A DNA stretch of 32,000 nucleotides from Candidatus Electrothrix sp. GW3-4 (GCF_037902255.1 NZ_CP147990.1:2220001-2252000), one strand, 5' to 3'. Positions 2,708 to 24,297 are shown, counted from the stretch's first letter. Numbers and translations are program-made. The notes: generated from the letters alone by a model not told the origin.

Positions 2708-3916
2708 CTACGCCAGATCCTTCCCAGCAAGGCCCTTCTTCGTCACCATCTTCAGCACCGCATAACCAGCAGCCCCGGAAATAAGAGAACCCAGGATAAT
2801 ACCGATCCGCTCATCAAAAACCTTTTCACCGCCCTGGAAAGCCAGCCCGCCGATAAAGAGGCTCATGGTGAAACCAATACCACAGAGCAGGGAGGCCCCG
2901 TAGAGATGGCCCCTTGTGATTTCCTTGGGCAATTGAGCAATCTTCAGTTTGAGGGCGAGGAAACAGAGGCCAAAGACGCCAAGCTGCTTACCAGCAACCA
3001 ATCCAAGAGCAATCCCCAGCGGCACAGGATGGAGCACCTGATCCATGCCCACGCCTTTCAAATTAAGGCCGGAATTGGCAAAGGCAAAGACCGGCAGGAT
3101 AAAGTATGCAACAACGGTGTGGAGACTATGCTCAAGACTTTTCAGGGGGGAGATCTCAGGGTTCTTCTTCGAGGAAAGCGGAATGAACATCGCCAGCAGC
3201 ACACCAGCAATAGTGGCATGGACCCCGGATTTCAGGGTAGCAAACCACATGATCGCACCAACCAGCAGATAAGGCGCCTTGGCAGACACCTGCATCCGGT
3301 TCAGCACAGCCAGCACGACCACACAGCCAGCCACCCCAGCCAGAGGTACGGTAAAGATCTCACTGGTGTAAAAAAAGGCGATAATCAGCACTGCGCCAAG
3401 ATCGTCAAAAATCGCCAGAGAGGTCAAGAAGACCTTTAAGGAATTAGGCACCCCGGAGCCGAGGAGGGTCAGTACGCCCAAGGCAAAGGCAATATCTGTT
3501 GCTGTGGGAACAGCCCATCCCCGCATGGCCATAGCATCACCGGTATTCAAAGCAGTATAGATAAGCGCAGGAATCAACATCCCGCCTATGGCTCCAACCA
3601 CAGGGAGCATGATGTTCTGGCTGTCAGAGAGCTCACCTTCCAGTATCTCTCGTTTTAATTCCAGGCCAACCAGGAAGAAAAAAATCGCCATCAATCCGTC
3701 ATTCACAAGATGATGGAGTGAGAGGTTTAACCCTATCTCCTGAATTCCAGGTATCCAGACCAGGGGATAAAGATGGAGTATCCCCTCATAGAGATGATTC
3801 ACGCCGGGAATATTGGCAGAGATTACAGCCAGGGCCGCAGCAAACATAAGGAGAATCCCCCCGGCTGCCTCCATCTTCAAAAACTCACTGATAAATGCTG
3901 TCGCCTTCTCCTTCAT
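2708..3916 (-). CDS. nhaA: Na+/H+ antiporter NhaA
   Basis: 402-aa polytopic ORF, collinear with E. coli NhaA as I recall it. Matching segments are NDGLMAIFFFLVGLELKREI, VPTATDIAFALGVLTLLG, LAIFDDLGAVLIIAFFY (the DD pair) and KSGVHATIAGVLLAMFIPL. Confidence 0.95.
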   Translation of the reverse strand: MKEKATAFISEFLKMEAAGGILLMFAAALAVISANIPGVNHLYEGILHLYPLVWIPGIQEIGLNLSLHHLVNDGLMAIFFFLVGLELKREILEGELSDSQNIMLPVVGAIGGMLIPALIYTALNTGDAMAMRGWAVPTATDIAFALGVLTLLGSGVPNSLKVFLTSLAIFDDLGAVLIIAFFYTSEIFTVPLAGVAGCVVVLAVLNRMQVSAKAPYLLVGAIMWFATLKSGVHATIAGVLLAMFIPLSSKKNPEISPLKSLEHSLHTVVAYFILPVFAFANSGLNLKGVGMDQVLHPVPLGIALGLVAGKQLGVFGLCFLALKLKIAQLPKEITRGHLYGASLLCGIGFTMSLFIGGLAFQGGEKVFDERIGIILGSLISGAAGYAVLKMVTKKGLAGKDLA

Positions 3917-4746: not shown

Positions 4747-5904
4747 TCAACTCTCCAAAAGCCCAAGGACCATCCCGGCCTCTGCTGTTTCAGAAGCCAG
4801 GGTTACGGAGGATTCATCTTGAGAAGCAAAGGTCTCAAGAAAAAGCTGCTGGGGCCTTACCTCAGAAAGAAAATACAGGGTCAGGGTACAGCGCCCGTGT
4901 TCCTTTTCTGGATAATGTCCTTCCAGCAGATCAATCCACGCCTCTTGCATGTCTTCTGAAAAAGCCGACGCTGCTGACGCCGTCAGGAATGCTCTGATTG
5001 CAGCAATCAACGCACCTGCCTCTTCCTGAAAATGCTCTCGCCGGAGGAAGGCTCCATCCTCCTCAGAATAAAAGCCGGGCAGAGGAAGAATCAGCAACGG
5101 TTTCGCTGGCGAGGAATGCCCCTGCCGGTACTGTTCCAGCAGGGCCTCAACTGCATCCGGGCTGCGACTGATAAAGGCAGTACCTGCAAATGATTGCTGA
5201 TGAAGGGCAAAGAGACGGCTCCAGGCCTTGAGACGCAACCGTTGTTGTTGAAAGGGAATCTCATCGCCTGGACCACTGGTTGGCAGCTCAAGATCTGGCA
5301 GGTCTCCGTCCTCTTCCCTGCGCAGCTCCCTGAACAACATTTCCTGCTGTTGCCTCATTCTATCCAGGTTCCGGCGGATCTCTGCCTGATTGCGATCCAT
5401 GGACTCACCAAGCTTGAGCAGCAACCTCGCCTGCCAGAGGCGTACAGAAAAAACGTTCTTTTCTTGCCCCTTTTCCGGTTCAGGAGTATGTTCCCCAGAA
5501 CCTGCTCGGATACCGCTCTGCTGCAGCAGGGTATCTATGATGGAGTGCTCGCGTTCATCCTCCCGCACAACGTGACCAAGGCCAGCTGAGAGGTTACCAA
5601 GATGACCTGCATAATCCTCAGGCCGTAAGCGGATATCCTGAAGGAGCGCAAGAAAACGTTCCCGGTCTTCTCCAAGCGGAGCCGGACAGGTATAGGCAAT
5701 GCATCTGCTGCGCTCCTGCTGGCCCAACATCTCGCGTACCAACGGAGTATCTGCTTCGGGCAGATCATCCTCAACCGGTCTCAGAAAAAGGACCTGCGTA
5801 AAAAGCAGGGGCAAGGGCAAGACCACACCATCGTCAGGCAGAACATCGGGAAAAATATAGGCAAGATCAACTGACATTATGCAAACATTCCGGGAAAAAT
5901 TCAC
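4747..5904 (-). CDS. Acidic hypothetical protein, no recognisable domain
   Basis: Long minus-strand ORF (389 aa from the GTG at 5916 in the track). GTG at 5904 has GAGGA 5 nt upstream. ATG at 5877 (MSVDLAYIF...) is another candidate start. The protein is D/E/R-rich with a central coiled-coil-like stretch (NQAEIRRNLDRMRQQQEMLFRELRREE). Confidence 0.55.
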   Translation of the reverse strand: MNFSRNVCIMSVDLAYIFPDVLPDDGVVLPLPLLFTQVLFLRPVEDDLPEADTPLVREMLGQQERSRCIAYTCPAPLGEDRERFLALLQDIRLRPEDYAGHLGNLSAGLGHVVREDEREHSIIDTLLQQSGIRAGSGEHTPEPEKGQEKNVFSVRLWQARLLLKLGESMDRNQAEIRRNLDRMRQQQEMLFRELRREEDGDLPDLELPTSGPGDEIPFQQQRLRLKAWSRLFALHQQSFAGTAFISRSPDAVEALLEQYRQGHSSPAKPLLILPLPGFYSEEDGAFLRREHFQEEAGALIAAIRAFLTASAASAFSEDMQEAWIDLLEGHYPEKEHGRCTLTLYFLSEVRPQQLFLETFASQDESSVTLASETAEAGMVLGLLES

Positions 5905-6374: not shown

Positions 6375-7493
6375 TCAGCCAAGATGCTCCAAGACAATTT
6401 TCAACATCCGACGAACCGGCTCAGCAGCTCCCCAGAGCAGCTGGTCGCCAACACTGAAGGCACTCAGGTACTGCTCCCCCAGGTTCATCTTGCGCAGGCG
6501 CCCCACCGGGATATCCAGGGTTCGGGTTACCCGGGTGGGTGTCAGTTTATTCACTGTTTCTTCCTTGGTATTGGCTACCAGGTAGACCCATTTATTATGA
6601 CTGGCAATGGCCTCTTCAATATCCGCTAAGGGAATATTCTGGTTCAGTTTGATGGTAAAGGCCTGGCTATGACAACGCATGGAACCGACCCGAACACAGC
6701 AACCATCAATAGGAATCTGGTTCTCAGCGCTATACCCAAGGATCTTATTGGTCTCAGAGACCCCTTTCCACTCCTCCCGGGTCTGGCCGTTGTCCATAGC
6801 CCGGTCAATCCAGGGAATCAGGCTGGCAGCCAGGGGGGCGCCGAAATTCTTGGTCAGAAAACGAGGGCTGCGGATCGTCTCAGTGACGTTTTTATCAATG
6901 ATCAAGGCTGTCTCGTGATCATCCAGCACGTTCTCGGCATTTTCACCGATCAGCCGCATCTGATCCACCAGCTCAATCATATTCTTGGCCCCGGCCCCGG
7001 ATGCGGCCTGATAAGTCTGTGAGGTGACCCACTCAACCCAACCCTTTTCAAAAAGACCGGCTAAGGCCATCAACATGAGGGAGACCGTGCAGTTGCCGCC
7101 AATATAATCCTTGATCCCGTCAGCCAGGCCCTGATCAATGATCTTACGGTTTACCGGGTCCAGAACAATAATGGAGTCCTTTTCCATGCGCAGGGTGGAT
7201 GCCGCATCAATCCAGTACCCCTCCCAGCCCTCACTCCGCAGCTTGGGATGTATATCAGAGGTATACTCGCCGCCCTGACAGGAGAGTAGAATATTGGTTT
7301 CCTTGAGCAGATTCAGGTCGTGGGCATCAAGCAGTTCATAGCTGGTACCGTCAATCTTGGGGCCTTCCTGACCTGCCTGGGAAGTGGAGAAAAACAGAGG
7401 TTCAATGCCCTTGAAATCATCCTCCTCACCCATGCGCTCCATGAGCACGGATCCGACCATGCCTCGCCAACCGATTATACCTACTTTTTTCAT
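6375..7493 (-). CDS. asd: Aspartate-semialdehyde dehydrogenase
   Basis: 372-aa ORF, collinear with E. coli Asd. Matching segments are MKKVGIIGWRGMVGSVLMERM, GGNCTVSLMLMAL, YQAASGAGAKNM, RCHSQAFTIKL and GDQLLWGAAEPVRRML. Confidence 0.95.
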   Translation of the reverse strand: MKKVGIIGWRGMVGSVLMERMGEEDDFKGIEPLFFSTSQAGQEGPKIDGTSYELLDAHDLNLLKETNILLSCQGGEYTSDIHPKLRSEGWEGYWIDAASTLRMEKDSIIVLDPVNRKIIDQGLADGIKDYIGGNCTVSLMLMALAGLFEKGWVEWVTSQTYQAASGAGAKNMIELVDQMRLIGENAENVLDDHETALIIDKNVTETIRSPRFLTKNFGAPLAASLIPWIDRAMDNGQTREEWKGVSETNKILGYSAENQIPIDGCCVRVGSMRCHSQAFTIKLNQNIPLADIEEAIASHNKWVYLVANTKEETVNKLTPTRVTRTLDIPVGRLRKMNLGEQYLSAFSVGDQLLWGAAEPVRRMLKIVLEHLG

Positions 7494-15478: not shown

Positions 15479-16849
15479 TTACAACTCCTCTGAACTCCGT
15501 TCAACCCGAGTCACCTCACACTCCAACCGCCCCTTATGGAGCAAGACCTCAATGGGATCTCCAACCTGAACCTGATCTGCTGCGGTGATCACGGTTTGGC
15601 GAGGACCAGTACCTTTTCGGGCCACGGCATAGCCGCGTGCCAGGGTGGATAAGGGACTCACCGCCTCCAGCACCCCTGCGGCTCGAGCAAGTTCCTGCTC
15701 CTTATCGCTGATGAGGTGGATACCGATCTGGTGCAGCCGGTGCTGCATCTCCTCAATGCGCTGCTGATAGAGATTCAGGACCAGTAAGGGGTTATTCCGT
15801 TTGAGCCGGTTTTCCACCCGGTCCAGGCGGGCCTGAAGGGCTGCCAGATTGGCCCGCATGGCATGTTCCATGTTTTCCGCCATATGATCCAGGCGAAGCA
15901 GCAGGGTATCCACCGGTTGGGCCGCACCAGACAGCTTATGCCGATAGAGGATGATCCGCTCCTGAAAGCGCTCCAATTGCCCCTGCATGGTGCGGTGGAG
16001 CCTGCGGGCCTGATCCACCAGATGCTCGCGCAGGGCCTGACCGTCCGGCAGCAGCATCTCAGCGGCCCCGCTGGGGGTGGGGGCACGGAGATCGGCCACC
16101 AGATCGGCAATGGTGAAGTCGATCTCATGGCCCACCGCGCTGACCACCGGGATGGTTGAGCTGCGGATCTCCCGCGCCAGCGCCTCGTTGTTAAAGGCCT
16201 GGAGGTCCTCGGTAGAACCACCGCCCCGGCAGAGGACAATGGCATCCGCTGCCAGTCGACCTGCCTCCTGCAGGAGATTAATCTCCGACACAGCCTGACG
16301 CAGTTCTTTTGCCGCCTGCTCGCCCTGCACTGCTGCCGGATAGACCGAGATCCGTACCTGGGGGTATCTCTTGTGGGCAATGCGGATGAAATCATGGACC
16401 GCAGCACCCGAGGGTGAGGTCACCAGGACAAGGTGCTCTGGCAGGGGTGGGATCGGCCTTTTCAGCTCCTGATCAAAGAGCCCTTCAGCGGCCAGCCGTT
16501 TTTTCAGCTGCTCAAAGGCGAGCTGCAAGGCCCCTTCCCCGTGGTAATCCAGACTGTCGATGATGAGCTGGTAGTCGCCCCTGGGCTCGTAGACCGAGAC
16601 CCTGCCCAGACAGACCACCATGTCGCCGTCCTTGGGCGGCTGAACCAGGTAGCGTTGCTGCATCTTGAACAACACGGCCTTGATCTGGGCCTGCTCGTCT
16701 TTGAGGGTGAAGTAGATATGGCCGGAGCCCGGTCGCCGCAGGCCGGAGATCTCACCGGCCACGCTGATAAAGGCAAAGCGGCCCTCCAGCATGGCCTTGA
16801 TGGAGCGGGTCAGCTCAGAGACGCTGAAGATCTTTTGTTGACTCAACAC
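15479..16849 (-). CDS. xseA: Exodeoxyribonuclease VII large subunit
   Basis: 456-aa ORF. The N-terminal OB region FISVAGEISGLRRPGSGHIYFTLKDEQAQIKAVLF parallels E. coli XseA [33 protein letters not shown]. A central catalytic region and a long C-terminal coiled coil follow. The GTG start overlaps the upstream stop. Confidence 0.92.
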   Translation of the reverse strand: MLSQQKIFSVSELTRSIKAMLEGRFAFISVAGEISGLRRPGSGHIYFTLKDEQAQIKAVLFKMQQRYLVQPPKDGDMVVCLGRVSVYEPRGDYQLIIDSLDYHGEGALQLAFEQLKKRLAAEGLFDQELKRPIPPLPEHLVLVTSPSGAAVHDFIRIAHKRYPQVRISVYPAAVQGEQAAKELRQAVSEINLLQEAGRLAADAIVLCRGGGSTEDLQAFNNEALAREIRSSTIPVVSAVGHEIDFTIADLVADLRAPTPSGAAEMLLPDGQALREHLVDQARRLHRTMQGQLERFQERIILYRHKLSGAAQPVDTLLLRLDHMAENMEHAMRANLAALQARLDRVENRLKRNNPLLVLNLYQQRIEEMQHRLHQIGIHLISDKEQELARAAGVLEAVSPLSTLARGYAVARKGTGPRQTVITAADQVQVGDPIEVLLHKGRLECEVTRVERSSEEL

Positions 16850-18408
16850 CAGATCACCTCCACAGAGCGCCCGGACGCGGTGGTGCAGTCCTCGCGGGAG
16901 AGGCGTTCCTCCCAGGGGATGCTGCGCTGGTCCGGCCGCCGATCAAAGATGACCAGATGACAGGTATGGGGTGCGGTTTGATCGGCATAACGCTCAACCT
17001 GGACCAGGCCCTGGGCACGGGTCGCCTCCCGGCCCATGCGGGGATGGACCAGTTTGATCTCGATCAGGTTGCGACCACCGGCAAAACGGATCAACAGATC
17101 CATCCGGCCCCGGCCTGCGGCATACTCCCGATCCACCATGCCGCCGCCATTGATAATGCGCTGGAGAAAGGCCATGAGGAGGAGGTGGGGAAAGGCCTCG
17201 GTATAGTCGGCCTTTTCCTCCCAGATCTCGGAATTCCAGGCCCAGAAGCGCTGAAACTCGTCCATCAGGGCGTCCATATCCAGGGTGCCGTCAGGGCGCT
17301 GCCAGCTGAATTCCGGGACCGGGATATTGTCCTGATAATTCTGGCTGAGGTAGCGGGCAATGACTTCCCGGTAGATGGCATTAGCGATCACCAGCGAGCC
17401 CTCCCAGGCGATCAGGCCCAGGTCGAGACAAAACTCCACATCACGGTCAGAACGGCCCAAGGTCGGATCAGCATGCCCGATGATCATGGGTTGAATCACC
17501 CGACGCACCCGTTCTTCTTTAAGCCGTTCGCCCAGGGAATCAATATGGGTTGCCCGTGAGGCGACAAGCCGCTCCCGTGCCTGATCCACATGTTCCGGCT
17601 GTACAGCTGTCTGTGCGGCGGGAATGATCCGATAGACGATCTGCTCGCAGAGAGCATTGACCAGCCAGGGTTGACCAGAAGAACAGGCCCATATGCGTTC
17701 CAAAGCATCAGGCGTGAACTCCTGCCCGGTTGCTTGAGTATGCTGAGAAGTAAGAGCGGCGATGTCGGCCTGAGTAAAATTCGTCAGCGTGGCAGAATCA
17801 TGCTTGATGTTGAAGGGACTGCCCGGATTGAGTGCCTGCCCCCCTTTGCTGGTGACCAAATAATCCCGCAGGTCTCGCATGCCCACGAGGGCCACCGAGA
17901 CAGGGAAAATCCCGACACCCCGACCACTGAAGCCGTCACGCAGTTGGCGAAGAAAGCTGACCAAGGCGGGTCCTGAAACTACATCCACCTCGTCAAACAG
18001 GACGACCAGTTTTTTGGGAGCGGTCTGTTCTGCCCAGCGGCTCAAGATAACGGACAGGTAACTGCCCGGAGAGGCCTCCTGGGGATATTCGGGAACAGGC
18101 AGGTCCAAGGCTTTCGCCGATTTCTGGACAGCATCCACCATCAACGGCATGGCCTGGTCTCTTTCCGTAATTTCCTGGCAGCGTTCCAGGCTGACATAGC
18201 AGGCCACGGCCTCGGTTCCAGCGTTGATCTCGTGCATCCAGGACTGGAGAAAGGTGGTCTTGCCGGTCTGGCGGGGCGCATGCAGGACCCAGTACAGTTC
18301 ATCCCGGATGTAGCGATCCAGACTGGCCCCGATCAGGCGGTCTTTAGGCGGCAGCATGTAATGAAGCCGGGGGAAGCAGGGGCCGGTGGTGTTAAAGTAT
18401 TTTGGCAT
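16843..18408 (-). CDS. AAA-ATPase-like + C-terminal PD-(D/E)xK domain protein (uncharacterised 'FNTxGPC' ATPase family)
   Basis: 521-aa ORF. The N-terminus is MPKYFNTTGPCFPRLHYMLP. Walker A is HAPRQTGKTT and Walker B is LVVLFDEVD. The C-terminal GRGRMDLLIRFAGGRNLIEIKL is a D...E.K nuclease-fold signature. Confidence 0.75.
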   Translation of the reverse strand: MPKYFNTTGPCFPRLHYMLPPKDRLIGASLDRYIRDELYWVLHAPRQTGKTTFLQSWMHEINAGTEAVACYVSLERCQEITERDQAMPLMVDAVQKSAKALDLPVPEYPQEASPGSYLSVILSRWAEQTAPKKLVVLFDEVDVVSGPALVSFLRQLRDGFSGRGVGIFPVSVALVGMRDLRDYLVTSKGGQALNPGSPFNIKHDSATLTNFTQADIAALTSQHTQATGQEFTPDALERIWACSSGQPWLVNALCEQIVYRIIPAAQTAVQPEHVDQARERLVASRATHIDSLGERLKEERVRRVIQPMIIGHADPTLGRSDRDVEFCLDLGLIAWEGSLVIANAIYREVIARYLSQNYQDNIPVPEFSWQRPDGTLDMDALMDEFQRFWAWNSEIWEEKADYTEAFPHLLLMAFLQRIINGGGMVDREYAAGRGRMDLLIRFAGGRNLIEIKLVHPRMGREATRAQGLVQVERYADQTAPHTCHLVIFDRRPDQRSIPWEERLSREDCTTASGRSVEVIWC

Positions 18409-18569: not shown

Positions 18570-19466
18570 TTAAAACTCAATACCTGCTTGTTTCAATAAT
18601 TTTTCAAGCCTGGCTTTTTCCGCTTCAACTCTCTCTTTTTCCGCTTCTGCCTTTTCTTTTCCCTCTTCTGCTTTCCTTTTTTCCGCTTCCGCTTTCTCTT
18701 TTTCCGCCCTTTCGTAAGCTATGAGCCGCTCCTGAGTCGCTAATTCTTCTAAGATCTCATCCTCTATATTCATATCTTCACAAAGTTCTTTGCTGGCAGA
18801 AGCCTTGTGCAGCCGCCTGATGATGACCTTGAATTCCTCTGGAAACGAGGATTCCAGTACATCAAGAAAATGGTTACTCTCTTTGCTGGCATTGCTCTGA
18901 TCAAAGATACTCAACAGTGTTTCCAATTTATTACGATGTTTTTTACGCAACCTCCTCACCTGGATGATATAACTGTCGTGGGTGAGACTTTCTATAAACT
19001 CTTCTTTCCGGGTCAGCTTCTCCTTGGTGGCATGGTCGTAATAATCTCTTTTCACGTGGATAACCGGGCTGTCATTATACTCCAGGTTATGCCCGAGTAT
19101 ATAAATACTTATAATGGGAAGCGCCTTCTTTTTCTGCGTCTTCTCATCCAGATGGATGTTGGAGTCTTCCTGATACTGTTTGCCGAGATATTTACGAAAC
19201 CGGGTTATATCAGTGGGAAATTTAGCCTTTTGCAACTCAATGAGAACCAGCCTACTGCTGCCGTCTGGCTCCCGTATTTTTGCTGCGAAATCAATCCGCA
19301 ATACTGTCAGGCCGCCGTCAGGAAGTTTTCTGTTCAACTCGGTAAAGGCGAAATCAAGGGATTCTATCTCCTGTTCAATGATGTTTGATATGACCAGTTT
19401 GGCAACTCGCATATCCTGCATCAGATATTTGAACACGACATCGTAGAGGGGATTTGCGACTTTCAT
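18570..19466 (-). CDS. PD-(D/E)xK nuclease family transposase-like protein (Rpn/YhgA-like, PDDEXK_2-type)
   Basis: I prefer ATG at 19466 (MKVANPLYDVVFKYLM...) with GAGGAA 7 nt upstream. Core segments are VLRIDFAAKI...RLVLIELQKAKF...RFRKYLG. The C-terminal K/E-rich coiled coil is KEKAEAEKRKAEEGKEKAEAEKERVEAEKARLEKLL. Confidence 0.7.
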   Translation of the reverse strand: MKVANPLYDVVFKYLMQDMRVAKLVISNIIEQEIESLDFAFTELNRKLPDGGLTVLRIDFAAKIREPDGSSRLVLIELQKAKFPTDITRFRKYLGKQYQEDSNIHLDEKTQKKKALPIISIYILGHNLEYNDSPVIHVKRDYYDHATKEKLTRKEEFIESLTHDSYIIQVRRLRKKHRNKLETLLSIFDQSNASKESNHFLDVLESSFPEEFKVIIRRLHKASASKELCEDMNIEDEILEELATQERLIAYERAEKEKAEAEKRKAEEGKEKAEAEKERVEAEKARLEKLLKQAGIEF

Positions 19467-19539
19467 TGTTTTATTCCTCGTTCCTGATGGAAACGGCATG
19501 AATGTGTTGCGTGCCCAGGGTATTACCCTGAGCTGGTTT

Positions 19540-19618
19540 GTAGGGGCGCACCTGTGTGTGCGCCCGGACTTTTATCGTGGATAATGAAGGAGGGCAGACA
19601 CAGAGGTCTGCGCCCTAC
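19540..19618. repeat. Nested double-hairpin element enclosed by an outer helix
   Basis: The outer helix pairs tgtaggggcg with cgccctaca (one bulged G). Inner hairpin 1 is GGGCGCAC-ctgtgt-GTGCGCCC (19544-19565). Inner hairpin 2 is GCAGAC-acagag-GTCTGC (19594-19611). A partial copy of the CAGGGT.. repeat immediately precedes it at 19516-19539. Confidence 0.65.
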
Positions 19619-19639
19619 AACAAATCCGGGGGATTTCAT

Positions 19640-19755
19640 ACCCTGAAAGGGTTATCCCTCCCCAGCGATAAATCACCGGGCTATGATCGAATGTCCCTCC
19701 GGGACAAGAGTCCCGAAGGGACGGCGGAAAATAGCCCGCTGTTTTAACGGCGGGC
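19640..19755. repeat. String of short GC-stem hairpins (source of spurious 'PSGT / SLRD / KSPGY' ORFs)
   Basis: The hairpins are accct-gaa-agggt (19640-19652), gtccc-tcc-gggac (19693-19705), gtccc-gaa-gggac (19710-19722) and gcccgc-tgttttaacg-gcgggc (19734-19755). Track ORFs on both strands translate this stretch into low-plausibility peptides. Confidence 0.6.
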
Positions 19756-19769
19756 AACTTCAGGTTACC

Positions 19770-19815
19770 CAGGGTGTTCCCCTGAGCTGGCTAAATACAG
19801 CCCTGTTGGGGCATT
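19770..19815. repeat. Intergenic repeat family 'CAGGGTGTTCCCTG...GCCCTGTTGGG', copy 2
   Basis: See 18423-18467. The two copies are in the same orientation and about 1.35 kb apart, flanking the Rpn-like gene. Confidence 0.7.
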
Positions 19816-20209
19816 GGTGCTTTCGTCATGATCGCAGAGGCATATCAATTTCCTTACCGGATCTTCCGAGTAGCCACAAAGGAGACTGTTGCAGAGGCAG
19901 AGGAGCATGTCTCAATGGCTCAGCAAAGGGGAATACCAAGGGAGCAGGCCTGCGATGCGGTTGTGCAGGGTGGCAAAACAACAAAGGAGTGCTCCTGAAT
20001 GATTTTTCTTTGCTCCTCTGTCGTTTTTCAGGGCTATTTTGCCGTCTTTCTGCGCTCCTTTATTGCCTTTGCTCCGCTATTTCGTTATTTTTCCTGGCTG
20101 TGCAACGGAAGGACAAAGGCCCCATTGCTTTTGCGGGACTTAAGGCATCTTTTAACCACCTGCTCGTCGCTCGCGCGGTCTGAACGCTGTTCAGTCATGC
20201 TTCCCTTGC

Positions 20210-21841
20210 CTACCGGCCCTGCTGAACAGGGAGAACAAGCCGGAAGCCCAGATTAGGACCGTAGTCATCAGGCATGTACCTGTTCCGGTACGCCGAGCGC
20301 ACGCTCTCGGGCCCGAAGTTCCAACTACCACCGCGAACCACGCGGAACGAGCCGGAAGAAGGACCGGTCGGATTATCCTTCGGAATTGTCCCATAATAAT
20401 CATTAGCGTACCAATCCCCACACCATTCACAAACATTGCCGCTCATGTCATACAATCCAAAGGTATTGGCTTTCTTTTCTCCCACCGGACGAGTGCTGTC
20501 TCCGCTGTTGCCATAATACCAGGCCACAGCATCCGAGTTGTCTCCGCCACTGTATTTGTACGCAGTCCCTGCACGAGCGGCGTACTCCCATTCCGCCTCG
20601 GTGGGCAGACGATACTTTCTGCCGGACTTGTTGTTCAGCTCAGCAATGCCCCCCTGCACATCCTCCCAAGACACCTGCTCCACTGGATACTTATCCCCTT
20701 TTTTGAATTTGGCCGGGTTCTCGCCCATAATCTTCTGCCATTGCCCCTGAGTGACCTCATATTTCCCCATCCAAAAGCCATCCACACAAACCTCATGTAC
20801 TGGCTTCTCATCATCATATCCACTTTTATTTGAACCCATCTGAAAACAGCCCTTAGGAATAGAGACAAACTCCATGTCGGTGATCGGGTCAGTTATAGTG
20901 TCGCCCTGCTGCGGTACGGAAAAACGAACTGGTTCAACTTTCCCACTACGTTGCCCCACAGACTGTCCATTATTCCCCCGCCTCGCAAAATCTCCTCTCC
21001 CACGTTTTTCCGCCTGTACAAGCAAGGGAGGCTCAGTCTGATTCTGCAATACCTTAGGCACAAAAATAAAATCTCCCTGCTCAACATCCTGCCCGGCCTT
21101 TCTGATGTCCCCATACAACGGAGTCTGATCCGCCTTGAGCGCAACGGGACGTTTGATCAAATCGAACAGACTATCACCCTCCAAAAGCTCCCGGTTCTTC
21201 CTCAACACCTCCAGAAACACCCAGGCAAAAACAGAATGACCGCTGCCGCCGGAGTCCAACACTGGCTCTTCTCCACCCGAGGTCAGGGCAGTGCGGGAGC
21301 GCCGCTGCAACATCCGCTGAAGGAATCGGTCCCGGCTCATGCCAGCAGCCAATTTCGCCCCGGAATCCCGTAACAGGCTGCCGGAATAACAGGAATCTGC
21401 CACCACAAGTACATGTCTTACCCGAATAGCCCTGAGCGTGTCTGTAATTCGCGAGGTGGGAACCCAGTACAACTCACTGTTCCTTTGCGCATTCACAGGT
21501 TGCCAGTAATCGACCCCGGTTGTTTTATCAAGAAATCCATGCCCAGCATAATAGATGAGCAGACTGTCCTCTTCCCCGGTCATAGTTCTGCGCAAGTCAT
21601 AAACCGCTTTCTCAAGCTGGTCCCTGTCCGGGTTCAAAACCAACTGTACGGTAAAGCCGTACTGCTCCTTTAACAGCCCAGCCACCGCCTTTGCATCCGC
21701 TATCGGGGTCTTCAAAGGTGTTAGGTGTTGATATTTCTCAATACCGATCACCAAGGCATGAAAATCTCCATAAGGAGAAGCGGCCTGTACCGGAACCGTG
21801 ATTGCCAGAACGAGCAGAATATACAAAAATCTTGTCAGCAT
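20210..21841 (-). CDS. Exported caspase-like (peptidase C14) + FGE-sulfatase/SUMF1-domain fusion protein
   Basis: 543-aa ORF with signal peptide MLTRFLYILLVLAITVPVQA/AS. The caspase His and Cys motifs are LLIYYAGHG and LVVADSCYSG. C-terminal FGE-type motifs are RLPTEAEWEYAARAG, GNVCEWCGDWY, RVVRGGSW and LGFRLV. Confidence 0.88.
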   Translation of the reverse strand: MLTRFLYILLVLAITVPVQAASPYGDFHALVIGIEKYQHLTPLKTPIADAKAVAGLLKEQYGFTVQLVLNPDRDQLEKAVYDLRRTMTGEEDSLLIYYAGHGFLDKTTGVDYWQPVNAQRNSELYWVPTSRITDTLRAIRVRHVLVVADSCYSGSLLRDSGAKLAAGMSRDRFLQRMLQRRSRTALTSGGEEPVLDSGGSGHSVFAWVFLEVLRKNRELLEGDSLFDLIKRPVALKADQTPLYGDIRKAGQDVEQGDFIFVPKVLQNQTEPPLLVQAEKRGRGDFARRGNNGQSVGQRSGKVEPVRFSVPQQGDTITDPITDMEFVSIPKGCFQMGSNKSGYDDEKPVHEVCVDGFWMGKYEVTQGQWQKIMGENPAKFKKGDKYPVEQVSWEDVQGGIAELNNKSGRKYRLPTEAEWEYAARAGTAYKYSGGDNSDAVAWYYGNSGDSTRPVGEKKANTFGLYDMSGNVCEWCGDWYANDYYGTIPKDNPTGPSSGSFRVVRGGSWNFGPESVRSAYRNRYMPDDYGPNLGFRLVLPVQQGR

Positions 21842-21843
21842 AC

Positions 21844-22527
21844 TTACTCTCCTAGTCTGCCTGCCTTTTGCCGCAGTCTTGCCAATTCAGCACGGGCATC
21901 CGCTGCATCCTGCACCTTTCCGTCTGCTTCCAGCAAGTCTGCAAACAAGGTCAAATTCGCGGCCTTGTCGATCTCCGACCCGTACAGATAGGCCAATCGC
22001 GCCATTGCCAGGGCCTCACCGATTCGCCCTTCCTCCTTCCACGCCCTGGCGATATTCGCCAAAGATTCGGCTGCTTCTTCCCGAATCAGGTCAGATTTGT
22101 CCAACACTCCCCATTCCTCAAGAGATGCTTTGCTCCCAACTTTCAGATCAGCTCCTTCCTGACGCAACGCTCCATCAAGATGAATATTCTCATCACGGCG
22201 AACCTCTGCTTTACTCGTCGTTTTTTCACCCGCAGCTGTTTTCTCATGAACATTCTCTGTCTTCATCTCCGGCGGTCCCTGCCACAGCATAATCCCGATC
22301 AACACCGTGCCGAACAGGGCAAAGTAGGCACCGGGCCAGAAATCCGTCAATCGCAAGGTAAATAGACTCGACTCGACCTCCGCCGAAGCAGTCCCTACCC
22401 CGGAACGGGCAAGCTCAGCAGGACGATTGAACAAACGAAATCCCAAATAGATAGAAAGCGCACCAATAGCCAACACGCTCAGACGATAGACAGTAACATA
22501 GAGCAAGAACTCAGTGGAATTGGACAT
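21844..22527 (-). CDS. Two-TM membrane protein with helical TPR-like C-terminal domain
   Basis: 227-aa ORF. The TM segments are LSVLAIGALSIYLGFRLF and GAYFALFGTVLIGIMLW. The C-terminal helical repeat-like region is EEAAESLANIARAWKEEGRIGEALAMARLAYLYG...DAADARAELARLRQKAG. Its stop lies 2 nt before the caspase ATG, and its own ATG lies 2 nt after the upstream stop. Confidence 0.7.
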   Translation of the reverse strand: MSNSTEFLLYVTVYRLSVLAIGALSIYLGFRLFNRPAELARSGVGTASAEVESSLFTLRLTDFWPGAYFALFGTVLIGIMLWQGPPEMKTENVHEKTAAGEKTTSKAEVRRDENIHLDGALRQEGADLKVGSKASLEEWGVLDKSDLIREEAAESLANIARAWKEEGRIGEALAMARLAYLYGSEIDKAANLTLFADLLEADGKVQDAADARAELARLRQKAGRLGE

Positions 22528-22529
22528 AC

Positions 22530-23585
22530 CTACCGCCCGCCCCCCATCTCCCGATAGACCAGCAACGGAGACACCAGCACCCTGGGATAGCGGCAGGTGC
22601 GCACCATCTGCTCAAAGCTCTCAAAGCCACGAAAGACACTGCGGAAGCCCCGCTCCACGGCCTCTTTGCTCGATAAATCGCCGCTCAAAAACTCCTGATG
22701 CGGGTTAAAGGCCGCATCCTCCGGGTTGGGCACCGAGCTGACAATACCCAACATGGTCACCTCCTCGGTGGGGACCGAACCGTAGGTGAAATGAAAGGCA
22801 GAGACATCCATATCAAAGAAGTTCTCCTGCTTCAGATGGCCAAAAACCTGCACGGCCATCTGCTCCTGGTCTGGATAGACCCGCAGGTTGATGATGCCGG
22901 AAATAAAGGTATCAATCCAGGTCCTGAGCCCGTCTAAGATCCACGGCTCAACCACTCCGGCCTTGGTATGGTTCTCCAGCAGATCTTGCAGCTTTTTCTT
23001 CTGCTCCTTGAGCGGTGCCTGCTGAATATTACGGGCATTGCGGTCCTTGATCTTGGCGATCTCTGCCTCCCGGACCTTGATCTGCTCCACCAGCTCCTTA
23101 TAGGCCTCTGTGCTCTTCACTGCTGCCTTATTGCTCTCATTGATCAAGGCAGCAATATCTGGAAAGGCCTCAGAAATCTTCCTCATCCGCTCGTAATGCT
23201 CAAGCACGCAGCGCCCGGTCACCTTGACACAGAAGGTATCTTTTAAGGTCTTGCGGAATTCCTTGTCCTGGATCTGCTCCGCCATCTTCTTACCAGAAAG
23301 TTCGACCAACTGCCCCTGATTGACCAGTTCTTGTTCCAGCTCCTGAAACAGGAGATGATGGGGCTTGACCTGTTCCTGTGCCCCCTGCCCTTCCTGGGCC
23401 GCACTGCCGGAATCGCCTTTAAAGATCTTAAAGTCGTATTTCTTTTTGCTCTCCGCCGGATTAACAGTGGCATAGGTAGCATCCCCGGCAGAGACAACCG
23501 CTCCGGTGAGCTGGTTGTACACGGAAAGAATCTTCTTGGTGTCTACATAGAGATAATCACAAAGGGACAGGTTCTTCTTTTTCAT
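22530..23585 (-). CDS. Hypothetical cytoplasmic protein with central coiled coil, no recognisable domain (first gene of the caspase operon)
   Basis: I prefer ATG at 23585 (MKKKNLSLCDYLYVDTKKILSVYNQL...) with AAAGGA 6 nt upstream; the track start at 23654 is TTG. It has no signal peptide or TM segment. The central coiled coil is EAYKELVEQIKVREAEIAKIKDRNARNIQQAPLKEQKKKLQDLLE. The C-terminal part looks beta-rich. Confidence 0.65.
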   Translation of the reverse strand: MKKKNLSLCDYLYVDTKKILSVYNQLTGAVVSAGDATYATVNPAESKKKYDFKIFKGDSGSAAQEGQGAQEQVKPHHLLFQELEQELVNQGQLVELSGKKMAEQIQDKEFRKTLKDTFCVKVTGRCVLEHYERMRKISEAFPDIAALINESNKAAVKSTEAYKELVEQIKVREAEIAKIKDRNARNIQQAPLKEQKKKLQDLLENHTKAGVVEPWILDGLRTWIDTFISGIINLRVYPDQEQMAVQVFGHLKQENFFDMDVSAFHFTYGSVPTEEVTMLGIVSSVPNPEDAAFNPHQEFLSGDLSSKEAVERGFRSVFRGFESFEQMVRTCRYPRVLVSPLLVYREMGGGR

Positions 23586-23733
23586 GGGGTATCCTTTCGC
23601 TGTTTCAGCGGTGAAGATTACTTGTTTTTTCAGAGAATACGCAGAATTCGTCAACCTTTTTACTTACCAAAGACCGCAGCAGCCTGTCAAGCTGAAGTCC
23701 GTACTCCCCTGAAGGACCCAAAAGGAGAGAGAC

Positions 23734-23762
23734 TTGACATCACCTTGTCATAAAGGTATTTT
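23734..23762 (+). promoter_or_regulatory. Possible sigma70-type promoter
   Basis: TTGACA (23734-23739), a 17-nt spacer, then TATTTT (23757-23762), upstream of the membrane-protein remnant and the histidine kinase. Confidence 0.3.
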
Positions 23763-23851
23763 TCACTATCGACTTCCCTTATCAGAGGGAGCTCGGCATA
23801 TCGTTTTTCGCTACCTCTTTTTCATCCGACCACAGCGGATACATACAAAGA

Positions 23852-24039
23852 ATGCTCCTGGCCGCCTTAAAAAAACTCTGGTCCGCCTTCACCGACCTGC
23901 TGCCCATCATCCTGGTCATCGCCTTTTTCCAGCTACTTGTCCTGCGCCAGCCCTTACCTCATCTGGGCTAATCTGGCGAGGTGCAGTCGGGGCCGTGCTG
24001 GTGCTTGTGGGCCTGGACAGCCAACTGAGTATCATGTGA
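23852..24039 (+). pseudogene. Truncated and frameshifted membrane-protein gene remnant (DUF1538-like N-terminus, from memory)
   Basis: ATG at 23852 gives MLLAALKKLWSAFTDLLPIILVIAFFQLLVLRQPLPHLG, then TAA at 23969. The hydrophobic continuation GAVGAVLVLVGL is in another frame and stops at 24039. No further membrane-protein sequence follows. Confidence 0.35.
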
Positions 24040-24297
24040 CCAGGCCCGTGACCACCGTTCCACCGGACAGGGGGTATCTGCTACGTGGCACGCTTGCTCC
24101 ATAACGCAGGTTTAAGCCGAGTACCGGTGGCGGAGAAGGCGATTTGATCGGTATTATTTCGCTCTCCCTACGCTCCTCCCCTATCGCAGCCCGTTGGCGG
24201 TTTGCATACATCTCAAAGGCCTTGCTCCAAAAACCGCTGCACCACATAAATTGTGTGTTATTCATAGGTCATTGCCAACCAAAGGAACCCGCTTTCC

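Follow-up and report, generated by a model that had tools for sequence, protein, structure and literature searches.

A caspase gene and its membrane-partner gene beside a separable DUF6414 gene in Candidatus Electrothrix sp. GW3-4

Introduction

In the EACC1-caspase system, a small constant membrane protein is paired with a caspase that carries variable domains (PMC7159879; Kaur et al. 2020, eLife, 'System 4'). EACC1 is cut by its caspase, and the C-terminal fragment then forms pores (Evans et al. 2025, bioRxiv 10.1101/2025.11.14.688446). Here we describe a locus of the cable bacterium Candidatus Electrothrix sp. GW3-4 that is comparable with this system in several respects. It is located in a 32-kb stretch of DNA (GCF_037902255.1, NZ_CP147990.1:2220001-2252000; the window, with positions counted from its first letter) and consists of three genes on the minus strand: gene 1 of the DUF6414 family, gene 2 for a membrane protein with a TPR domain, and gene 3 for a putatively exported caspase fused to an FGE-fold domain. 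The fusion of a caspase with an FGE domain has been known since 2012 (PMC3501461), and orthocaspase-CLec proteins are already known as targets of diversity-generating retroelements (DGRs) (PMC7517822, PMC10907252). DUF6414 is the family of DolA, which forms the Dodola defence system together with the ClpB-like ATPase DolB.

Generally, the locus is a composite, in which genes 2 and 3 make up a core two-gene system and gene 1 is separable. In our reading, genes 2 and 3 are analogous to the EACC1-caspase death module but would act in the periplasm, and the small membrane protein is probably the substrate of the caspase. For the statement as a whole (a module of caspase and membrane partner, its cleavage mechanism and a separable gene 1) we estimate a probability of about 0.55.

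As in the EACC1-caspase system, the gene of a small membrane protein precedes that of a C14 caspase with a variable sensor-like domain, and tight gene coupling, DGR-linked members and enrichment in multicellular bacteria are listed as common to both systems. In contrast, EACC1 has one transmembrane (TM) helix with alpha+beta extensions, while the gene 2 protein has two TM helices and a TPR domain; the caspases of the gene 2 family carry predicted signal peptides and hence should act in the periplasm; and they may be encoded downstream, upstream or on the opposite strand. Besides, cleavage and pore formation are results obtained with EACC1, whereas for genes 2 and 3 they are predicted from an invariant basic linker residue. 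The proposed logic is also like that of the bacterial gasdermin-protease systems and other protease-gated effectors (Pepco, MBL), where proteolysis strips an inhibitory part and frees a membrane-active part; there is no sequence or fold relationship to these, and in the present locus the effector would already be inserted in the membrane and the protease exported. The family of two-TM-TPR partners, the invariant basic linker residue, the predicted exported location and the exchange with EACC1 appear to be new, as they were not found in the family libraries or the literature searched.

Results

Gene calls and junctions

Gene 1 (22530-23585) encodes 351 aa, gene 2 (21844-22527) 227 aa and gene 3 (20210-21841) 543 aa, and these calls were reproduced in two independent read-set assemblies. 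The gene 3 protein is 100% identical to one of Candidatus Electrothrix sp. GW3-4, a marine cable bacterium. The sequence-only reading of this DNA had claimed three co-oriented minus-strand genes with identical 2-nt junctions, and both junctions read exactly so: TAG-GT-ATG between genes 1 and 2 (22525-22532) and TAA-GT-ATG between genes 2 and 3 (21839-21846), the latter with AGGAGA just before it. The length of 352 aa given there for gene 1 needed correction. A TTG-extended form of 374 aa lacks support as well, since the homologues begin at the same Met as the 351-aa form. The scan for promoters and terminators was uninformative, with 6 promoter-like sites where 3.7 were expected and 11 terminator-like sites where 5.5 were expected.

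Conserved pairing of genes 2 and 3

In the cable bacteria, a homologue of gene 2 is followed by a caspase-FGE gene in L049, L051, L053 and L057 (L-numbers are comparison loci from other genomes or metagenomes), and the gap is 2 nt (GAGTAA-NN-ATG) in all four as in the window; L058 has a 4-nt overlap. Pairing of a gene-2-like gene with a caspase is also found in L059 (Desulfococcaceae) and L060. For a wider survey we scanned metagenomes with two hairpin motifs and 16 closer gene 2 sequences, because an alignment of 60 sequences contained no conserved stretch and was unusable for this purpose. The scan yielded 80 loci, 69 of which were evaluable with at least 400 nt beyond the gene. A caspase adjoins the gene 2 relative in most of these (53 of 69), directly downstream on the same strand in 29 and in another arrangement in 24 (upstream of it on that strand, in divergent or convergent orientation, or further along the downstream open reading frame (ORF)).

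As in the EACC1-caspase system, the caspase comes with a variable additional domain, both in gene 3 (Peptidase_C14 and FGE-sulfatase) and among the family neighbours. Peptidase_C14 was matched by Pfam in 41 of 41 neighbours tested, and the most frequent extra domains are Sel1 (11) and FGE-sulfatase (8), followed by TPR, WD40, Lcl_C and others. Of the 29 directly downstream caspases, about 24 begin with a signal-peptide-like N-terminus (a basic, a hydrophobic and an AxA-like part, judged heuristically), and therefore the partner caspases seem to be exported in general. Genes 2 and 3 are translationally coupled and co-inherited, and very probably constitute a conserved pair. For these two genes the conserved 2-nt junction and the caspase adjacency support the earlier proposal of a protease module of the bacterial conflict type at the membrane or in the periplasm.

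Outside the cable bacteria, homologues of the caspase-FGE gene are not always accompanied by the partner: no such gene lies upstream in L056, and an unrelated soluble protein of 274 aa is encoded in L055. The latter locus is a caspase cluster (L055:723-6653) of a caspase-Lcl_C gene, a CHASE2 gene, the gene of the 274-aa protein and a caspase-FGE gene. In L059:1-7998 (Desulfococcaceae HSG9), three caspase genes, two of them with Lcl_C, surround one gene-2-like gene. Disrupted or altered versions are seen in two further loci. In L004:7794-10827 the orthologous caspase-FGE gene is interrupted by a 440-aa minus-strand ORF with no Pfam match, presumably an insertion; in L002 a 613-aa gene, likewise with no Pfam match, is located between the gene-2-like and the caspase-FGE gene, and the gene-2-like gene is seemingly split into pieces of 161 aa and 79 aa.

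Gene 3 combines a caspase with a lectin-type FGE fold

According to Pfam, gene 3 contains a Peptidase_C14 domain (residues 28-241, 21119-21760; 74.6 bits) and an FGE-sulfatase domain (PF03781; residues 324-536, 20234-20872; E 6.2e-50). The His-Cys dyad of the p20-like domain, which the sequence-only reading had described as intact, is present with H101 in YYAGHG (codon at 21539-21541) and C151 in ADSCYSG (codon at 21389-21391). In the 41 partner caspases the H, G and C columns and the D-x-C motif are invariant, and gene 3 itself has D-S-C (D149-S-C151) rather than Q-A-C. The Asp before the catalytic Cys lines the basic-specific S1 pocket of metacaspases. Orthocaspases cut after basic residues (PMC6426788).

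The N-terminus of gene 3 (MLTRFLYILLVLAITVPVQA, followed by AS; residues 1-20, 21782-21841) has a basic n-region, a hydrophobic core of 14 residues and an AxA-like site, VQA/AS. By these heuristics it looks like a Sec signal peptide, as claimed earlier.

The best PDB match of the FGE-fold domain is the variable protein 1 of T. denticola (TvpA; E 2.8e-36), and true FGEs match less well (E about 1e-21). In the alignment with the FGE 2q17, the enzyme's 'RGGSYLCHDSYCNRYR' stands opposite 'RGGSWNFGP---ESVR' of gene 3, which has no Cys and a gap at the LCHDSYC site. The fold is thus present and the catalytic cysteine pair after the RGGS motif absent. Because the catalytic Cys are replaced by a gap or non-Cys residues and TvpA matches best, the domain is predicted to be a binding domain and not an enzyme, in agreement with the ligand-binding role proposed before. 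Gene 3 has the same domain architecture as the known caspase and orthocaspase fusions with FGE (CLec), including DGR variable proteins (PMC3501461, PMC7517822, PMC10907252), and shares the C-terminal CLec/TvpA-like domain with DGR variable proteins; a coupled two-TM-TPR partner is not described for these in the literature searched.

A DGR was found beside a paralogue. L057:1506-5799 (Logan SRR28154589), which carries the GW3-4 paralogue, contains a paralogous pair of a gene-2-like and a caspase-FGE gene. Next come an HRDC-domain gene, a gene for a reverse transcriptase (RVT_1) and a template repeat (5411-5543), which shares 80-85% identity with the 3' end of the caspase-FGE gene (3706-3862), with mismatches mostly at adenines of the template repeat. 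This element is a DGR aimed at the lectin-fold domain of the paralogous caspase. For gene 3 itself, no template repeat of its 3' end was found in the 32-kb window, the rest of the genome not having been searched, and its mismatches to the L057 template repeat are not limited to adenines; gene 3 was thus rejected as a DGR target on the evidence in the window.

Gene 2 belongs to a family of membrane-hairpin TPR proteins

The description of the middle gene as a two-TM protein with a helical-repeat tail is borne out by two hydrophobic segments and a true TPR tail. The two helices are Gly-rich and form the membrane hairpin (residues 4-83, 22279-22518), the most conserved part of the family. Full or almost full conservation of R15 (inside TM1), G22, G29, P65-G66 and G73 was seen both in 60 representatives and among 78-80 independent members from metagenomes. 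The TPR domain (residues 129-225, 21853-22143) is modelled with a predicted local distance difference test (pLDDT) score of 80-93 and a Foldseek TPR probability of 1.00, and the family profile matches consensus TPR chains. Between them is a variable linker with a sole conserved position, R111 (codon at 22195-22197). This column is Arg or Lys in 60 of 60 family members and in 76 of 79 (96%) independent metagenome members.

The mean number of Lys plus Arg is 0.07 at the N-terminus, 4.55 in the loop between TM1 and TM2 and 1.7 after TM2. From this distribution we infer, by the positive-inside rule, that the loop between the helices would be cytoplasmic and the linker and TPR domain periplasmic, in the compartment also predicted for the caspase.

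No family containing gene 2 was found in Pfam (E<=1), NCBIfam, PADLOC or PHROGs. A word-indexed search gave 51 hits, all of them cable-bacterial, and the view of gene 2 as an orphan of cable bacteria was overturned by an exhaustive profile search, which returned 1192 representatives at E<=1e-3 (the weaker end of which may contain TPR-only matches) and 338 at E<=1e-10. About 140 of the 150 best representatives align from residue ~1, that is, with the N-terminal hairpin. Homology of gene 2 to EACC1 was rejected: there is no PF19953 hit at E<=1, BLASTP against the EACC1 of L006 gave nothing, and the hhalign probability is 0.2%.

Two caspase pairs occupy the same slot

In Candidatus Electrothrix aestuarii (L141) and a Desulfobulbaceae metagenome-assembled genome (L006), the genes for EACC1 and a caspase come 2 nt after gene 1. 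Collinearity of the window with L141 extends over DUF2279, a histidine kinase, gene 1, a 309-aa gene and an AAA-PDDEXK gene. The next start codon after gene 1 is the exact point where homology stops (window 22525, L141 7061), so that the junction of genes 1 and 2 is the left breakpoint; the homology restarts some 90 nt beyond the stop codon of the caspase gene (window 20124, L141 8680). What differs between the breakpoints is EACC1 with a 372-aa caspase in Ca. E. aestuarii and gene 2 with the caspase-FGE gene in the window. Because these two unrelated caspase pairs occupy one and the same slot, the swap argues for equivalent roles of both.

Gene 1 is a DUF6414 gene separable from the pair

Gene 1, in which no domain had been recognised, matches DUF6414 (Pfam PF19952) with 48.2 bits against a cut-off of 25 (E 1.6e-12). 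The lack of a signal peptide noted before agrees with the absence of any hydrophobic window of 19 residues. Conservation of gene 1 extends across the Proteobacteria. About 210 homologues with 45-50% identity were found in Xanthomonas, Lysobacter, Vibrio, Thalassolituus and others, in which the motifs HFTYGSxPTE and FRGxFRGF are invariant and RTCRxPR nearly so. An AlphaFold2 model reached pLDDT 72; it had no fold match in the PDB, and the family profile had no sequence match there. Scans of PADLOC, NCBIfam and PHROGs returned nothing except an N-terminal PHROG of unknown function.

The co-occurrence of gene 1 with the pair is restricted. Neither gene 2 nor a caspase was found near gene 1 homologues outside the cable bacteria (0 of 38 loci), which had no conserved neighbour at all, and gene 1 was found in 0 of 80 metagenome loci of gene 2. 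The synteny check set beforehand, whether homologues of gene 1 accompany caspase-FGE genes elsewhere, thus came out negative. Among the cable bacteria, L049, L051 and L057 have the pair but not gene 1, and L001, L005, L007 and L008 have gene 1 but not the pair, with a 41-aa remnant of gene 2 retained in L003. Genes 1 and 2 are 2 nt apart in the window; L002 and L004 have 68 nt between them, and L053 has a spacer of 187 nt with a hairpin in it. Of the coupled three-gene unit that had been proposed, the tight coupling of genes 2 and 3 holds and an obligate inclusion of gene 1 is not supported, though in the window strain gene 1 seems to have become joined to the transcription unit of genes 2 and 3. 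Gene 1 is also an unlikely substrate of the caspase, as had been suggested, because it lacks an export signal and the caspase has a predicted one.

Outside the cable bacteria, the neighbours of gene 1 homologues include type ISP/MmeI restriction-modification (R-M), NERD, OLD, AAA_13 and DUF6119 genes, kinases and IS200. Neighbours match PADLOC defence families (mad2/3/6, AriA, Old, DrmD, PD-T4-6, MkoA, GajA), and these loci are defence islands. Like DolA, gene 1 belongs to DUF6414 and its homologues are found among known defence genes. In contrast to Dodola, no PADLOC DolA model matches gene 1 even at E<=1, no ClpB-like ATPase is beside it (its neighbours are gene 2 and a histidine kinase), and its homologues have no conserved partner gene (48 loci). 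Overall, gene 1 is a cytoplasmic DUF6414 protein gene and an independent resident of defence islands, which in cable bacteria is located directly upstream of swappable caspase cassettes.

In at least 13 of the non-cable loci L016-L047, a co-directional gene of an unrelated family starts 2-61 nt after the gene 1 homologue (match at ~7060-7100); among the products are a NERD nuclease, an OLD AAA_15-TOPRIM protein, a protein kinase, MmeI/type ISP R-M, DUF6119 and a second DUF6414 protein. The pattern would fit either tight packing in defence islands or a conserved gene with variable partners.

Flanking regions

The flanks had been taken as island-like. The comparison points instead to synteny of ancestral origin, modified by a deletion, visible as a scar, and by the insertion of two genes. 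L053 has the order DUF2279 ... gene 1-gene 2-gene 3-xseA and L051 the order gene 2-gene 3-xseA, and xseA is at 15479-16849 in the window. The locus is at an ancestral syntenic position between DUF2279 and xseA, common to cable bacteria, with local insertions and deletions, and not in a freshly acquired island.

The decayed gene reported on one flank is real. Comparison by blastx and blastn with L002, L003, L053, L005 and L007 revealed a deletion scar upstream of gene 1 (23644-24167), in which a DUF1538 gene has left remains of its 5' part (23644-24016) and a CBS gene its 3' end (24037-24167); the two are intact in sister genomes and stand beside gene 1 in L002, L003 and L053. A deletion removed a block of two DUF1538 genes, P-II and CBS.

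The repeat-filled non-coding DNA of about 700 bp on the other flank was also found, as a 710-bp spacer below gene 3 (19500-20209) with dispersed Electrothrix repeats and the right breakpoint of the cassette at 20124. It contains two Rfam Acido-Lenti-1 RNA motifs (19661-19706 on the plus and 19709-19754 on the minus strand), tail-to-tail and 2 nt apart, about 450 nt below gene 3. They score 31.5 and 43.1 bits against a gathering score of 37; the family takes its name from other phyla.

Two minus-strand genes have been gained in the window between gene 3 and xseA. The 309-aa gene (18570-19499) has no family match and ends in a C-terminal repeat of the EKAEAEK type (21-nt tandem repeats at 18614-18718). 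In Ca. E. aestuarii (L141:9010-13056), a unit of about 950 bp with this gene is present four times in tandem with 86-90% identity, and some copies look decayed (fragmented gene calls). The 521-aa gene (16843-18408) has weak matches to AAA_22/AAA_14 and PD-(D/E)XK (PDDEXK_9), all under the Pfam cut-offs. Its overlap with the start of xseA is 7 nt, and L051 and L053 lack it in their interval between gene 3 and xseA.

Discussion

A possible mechanism is as follows. The gene 2 protein would be placed in the inner membrane by its conserved hairpin, with the linker and the TPR domain facing the periplasm. The lectin-fold domain of gene 3, whose counterpart in the paralogue is diversified by a DGR, would bind a ligand in the periplasm or outside the cell, perhaps a component of a phage or of other foreign origin or a signal of damage, and ligand binding would switch on the caspase. 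The caspase would then cut the gene 2 protein after the invariant Arg/Lys of the linker (R111), and with the TPR domain removed, the freed hairpin could act on the membrane and lead to permeabilisation and to death or arrest of that filament cell. We take the R111 column as the putative cleavage site because it is basic in 96-100% of members, orthocaspases cut after basic residues and D-x-C is invariant in the partner caspases. The cleavage mechanism itself is held tentatively, at somewhat under even odds.

Several points weigh against this interpretation. A caspase was not detected by hidden Markov models in 16 of the 69 evaluable metagenome loci. At the linker site the cable-bacterial subfamily has R-D or R-A, against R-G as usual in the family. 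The topology of gene 2 is derived solely from the positive-inside rule, and its structure model is poor outside the TPR domain (pLDDT 64.7; linker <50). That the caspase acts on the gene 2 partner is a prediction from the sequences. Besides, the 2-nt spacing before two unrelated types of caspase cassette (in the window, L006 and L141) hints that gene 1 is perhaps not fully independent in the cable lineage, and a housekeeping role in the envelope may be considered, because the pair beside xseA is vertically conserved in cable bacteria.

The last point leads to the strongest competing explanation, that of a housekeeping envelope protease pair without a death effector. In such a pair the TPR protein would serve as a membrane tether or adaptor and hold a periplasmic caspase-lectin in place or in check, and the targets of the protease would be proteins or glycans of the envelope or periplasm. 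The conserved chromosomal position beside xseA in several cable bacteria, the nature of TPR domains as generic protein-binding scaffolds and the Sel1, TPR and PEGA-type domains of partner caspases, which are common in envelope proteins, all agree with this explanation. However, it is the hairpin and not the TPR domain that is most conserved, with an invariant Arg inside TM1 that would be unusual for a mere anchor, and one invariant basic residue stands in an otherwise free linker. The slot is interchangeable with EACC1-caspase, there are several paralogues per genome, one of them DGR-diversified, and close relatives show loss or disruption of the pair (L001, the remnant in L003, the insertion in L004). 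We therefore regard it as unlikely, at roughly one chance in five or slightly better. Far less credible is the idea that gene 3 is a sulfatase-maturation or EgtB/PvdO-type enzyme and the operon metabolic. Its database name ('SUMF1/EgtB/PvdO family nonheme iron enzyme'), the strong Pfam FGE-sulfatase match and sub-threshold NCBIfam matches to PvdO, EgtB and GldK point that way, yet every NCBIfam match is far under its cut-off, the catalytic Cys pair of FGE is replaced by a gap and non-Cys residues, among proteins of known structure the DGR variable protein TvpA is the closest in sequence, and a sulfatase gene was not seen among the flanking genes examined; hardly any weight is left for this option.

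A true three-component envelope-spanning system, in which the cytoplasmic gene 1 protein would be a sensor or regulator acting in one unit with the membrane partner and exported caspase, would explain the 2-nt junction of genes 1 and 2 in the window and the EACC1-caspase at the same distance from gene 1 in L006 and L141. The adjacency of all three genes also in L002, L004 and L053, the small size of the L141 caspase (just 372 aa, with no recognised sensor domain) and the place of DUF6414 as one half of the two-gene Dodola fit as well. Against it are the separate distributions of gene 1 and the pair (0 of 38 and 0 of 80 loci), the loci with only the pair (L049, L051, L057) or only gene 1 (L001, L005, L007, L008), the spacer of 68-187 nt elsewhere with its hairpin in L053, and the predicted location of gene 1 and the caspase in different compartments. 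On balance such a system is improbable, behind the housekeeping explanation. A broader version is more doubtful again: DUF6414 proteins, including DolA, might be general cytoplasmic sensors or adaptors with interchangeable effectors, and gene 1 might control the swappable caspase cassettes in a death relay from cytoplasm to periplasm. It is an equally long shot that the cassettes of such a relay would comprise an EACC1 type at the cytoplasm or membrane and a two-TM-TPR type in the periplasm. We thus retain the reading of genes 2 and 3 as a caspase and membrane-partner module with a separable gene 1.

In conclusion, protease-gated death effectors are an emerging dominant logic of bacterial immunity, and the described modules are thought to be cytoplasmic or at the cytoplasmic face of the membrane. 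The present analysis suggests that putatively exported caspases have a sizeable, so far unnamed family of membrane partners with a concrete predicted cleavage site, for which the natural swap against EACC1 argues for an equivalent function. The common but unexplained caspase-FGE-sulfatase architecture gains a reading as a sensor-protease with a defined partner, and DUF6414 genes are seen as residents of defence islands that lack a fixed partner. In the multicellular filaments of cable bacteria, the role of caspase-domain genes is an open question (PMC12163305). If the relay from gene 1 were true, it could underlie the formation of 'ghost cells' or filament fragmentation in these multicellular bacteria. 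If the module itself functions as we read it, caspase-gated killing would extend to the periplasm, where phage components and neighbour-derived signals arrive first.

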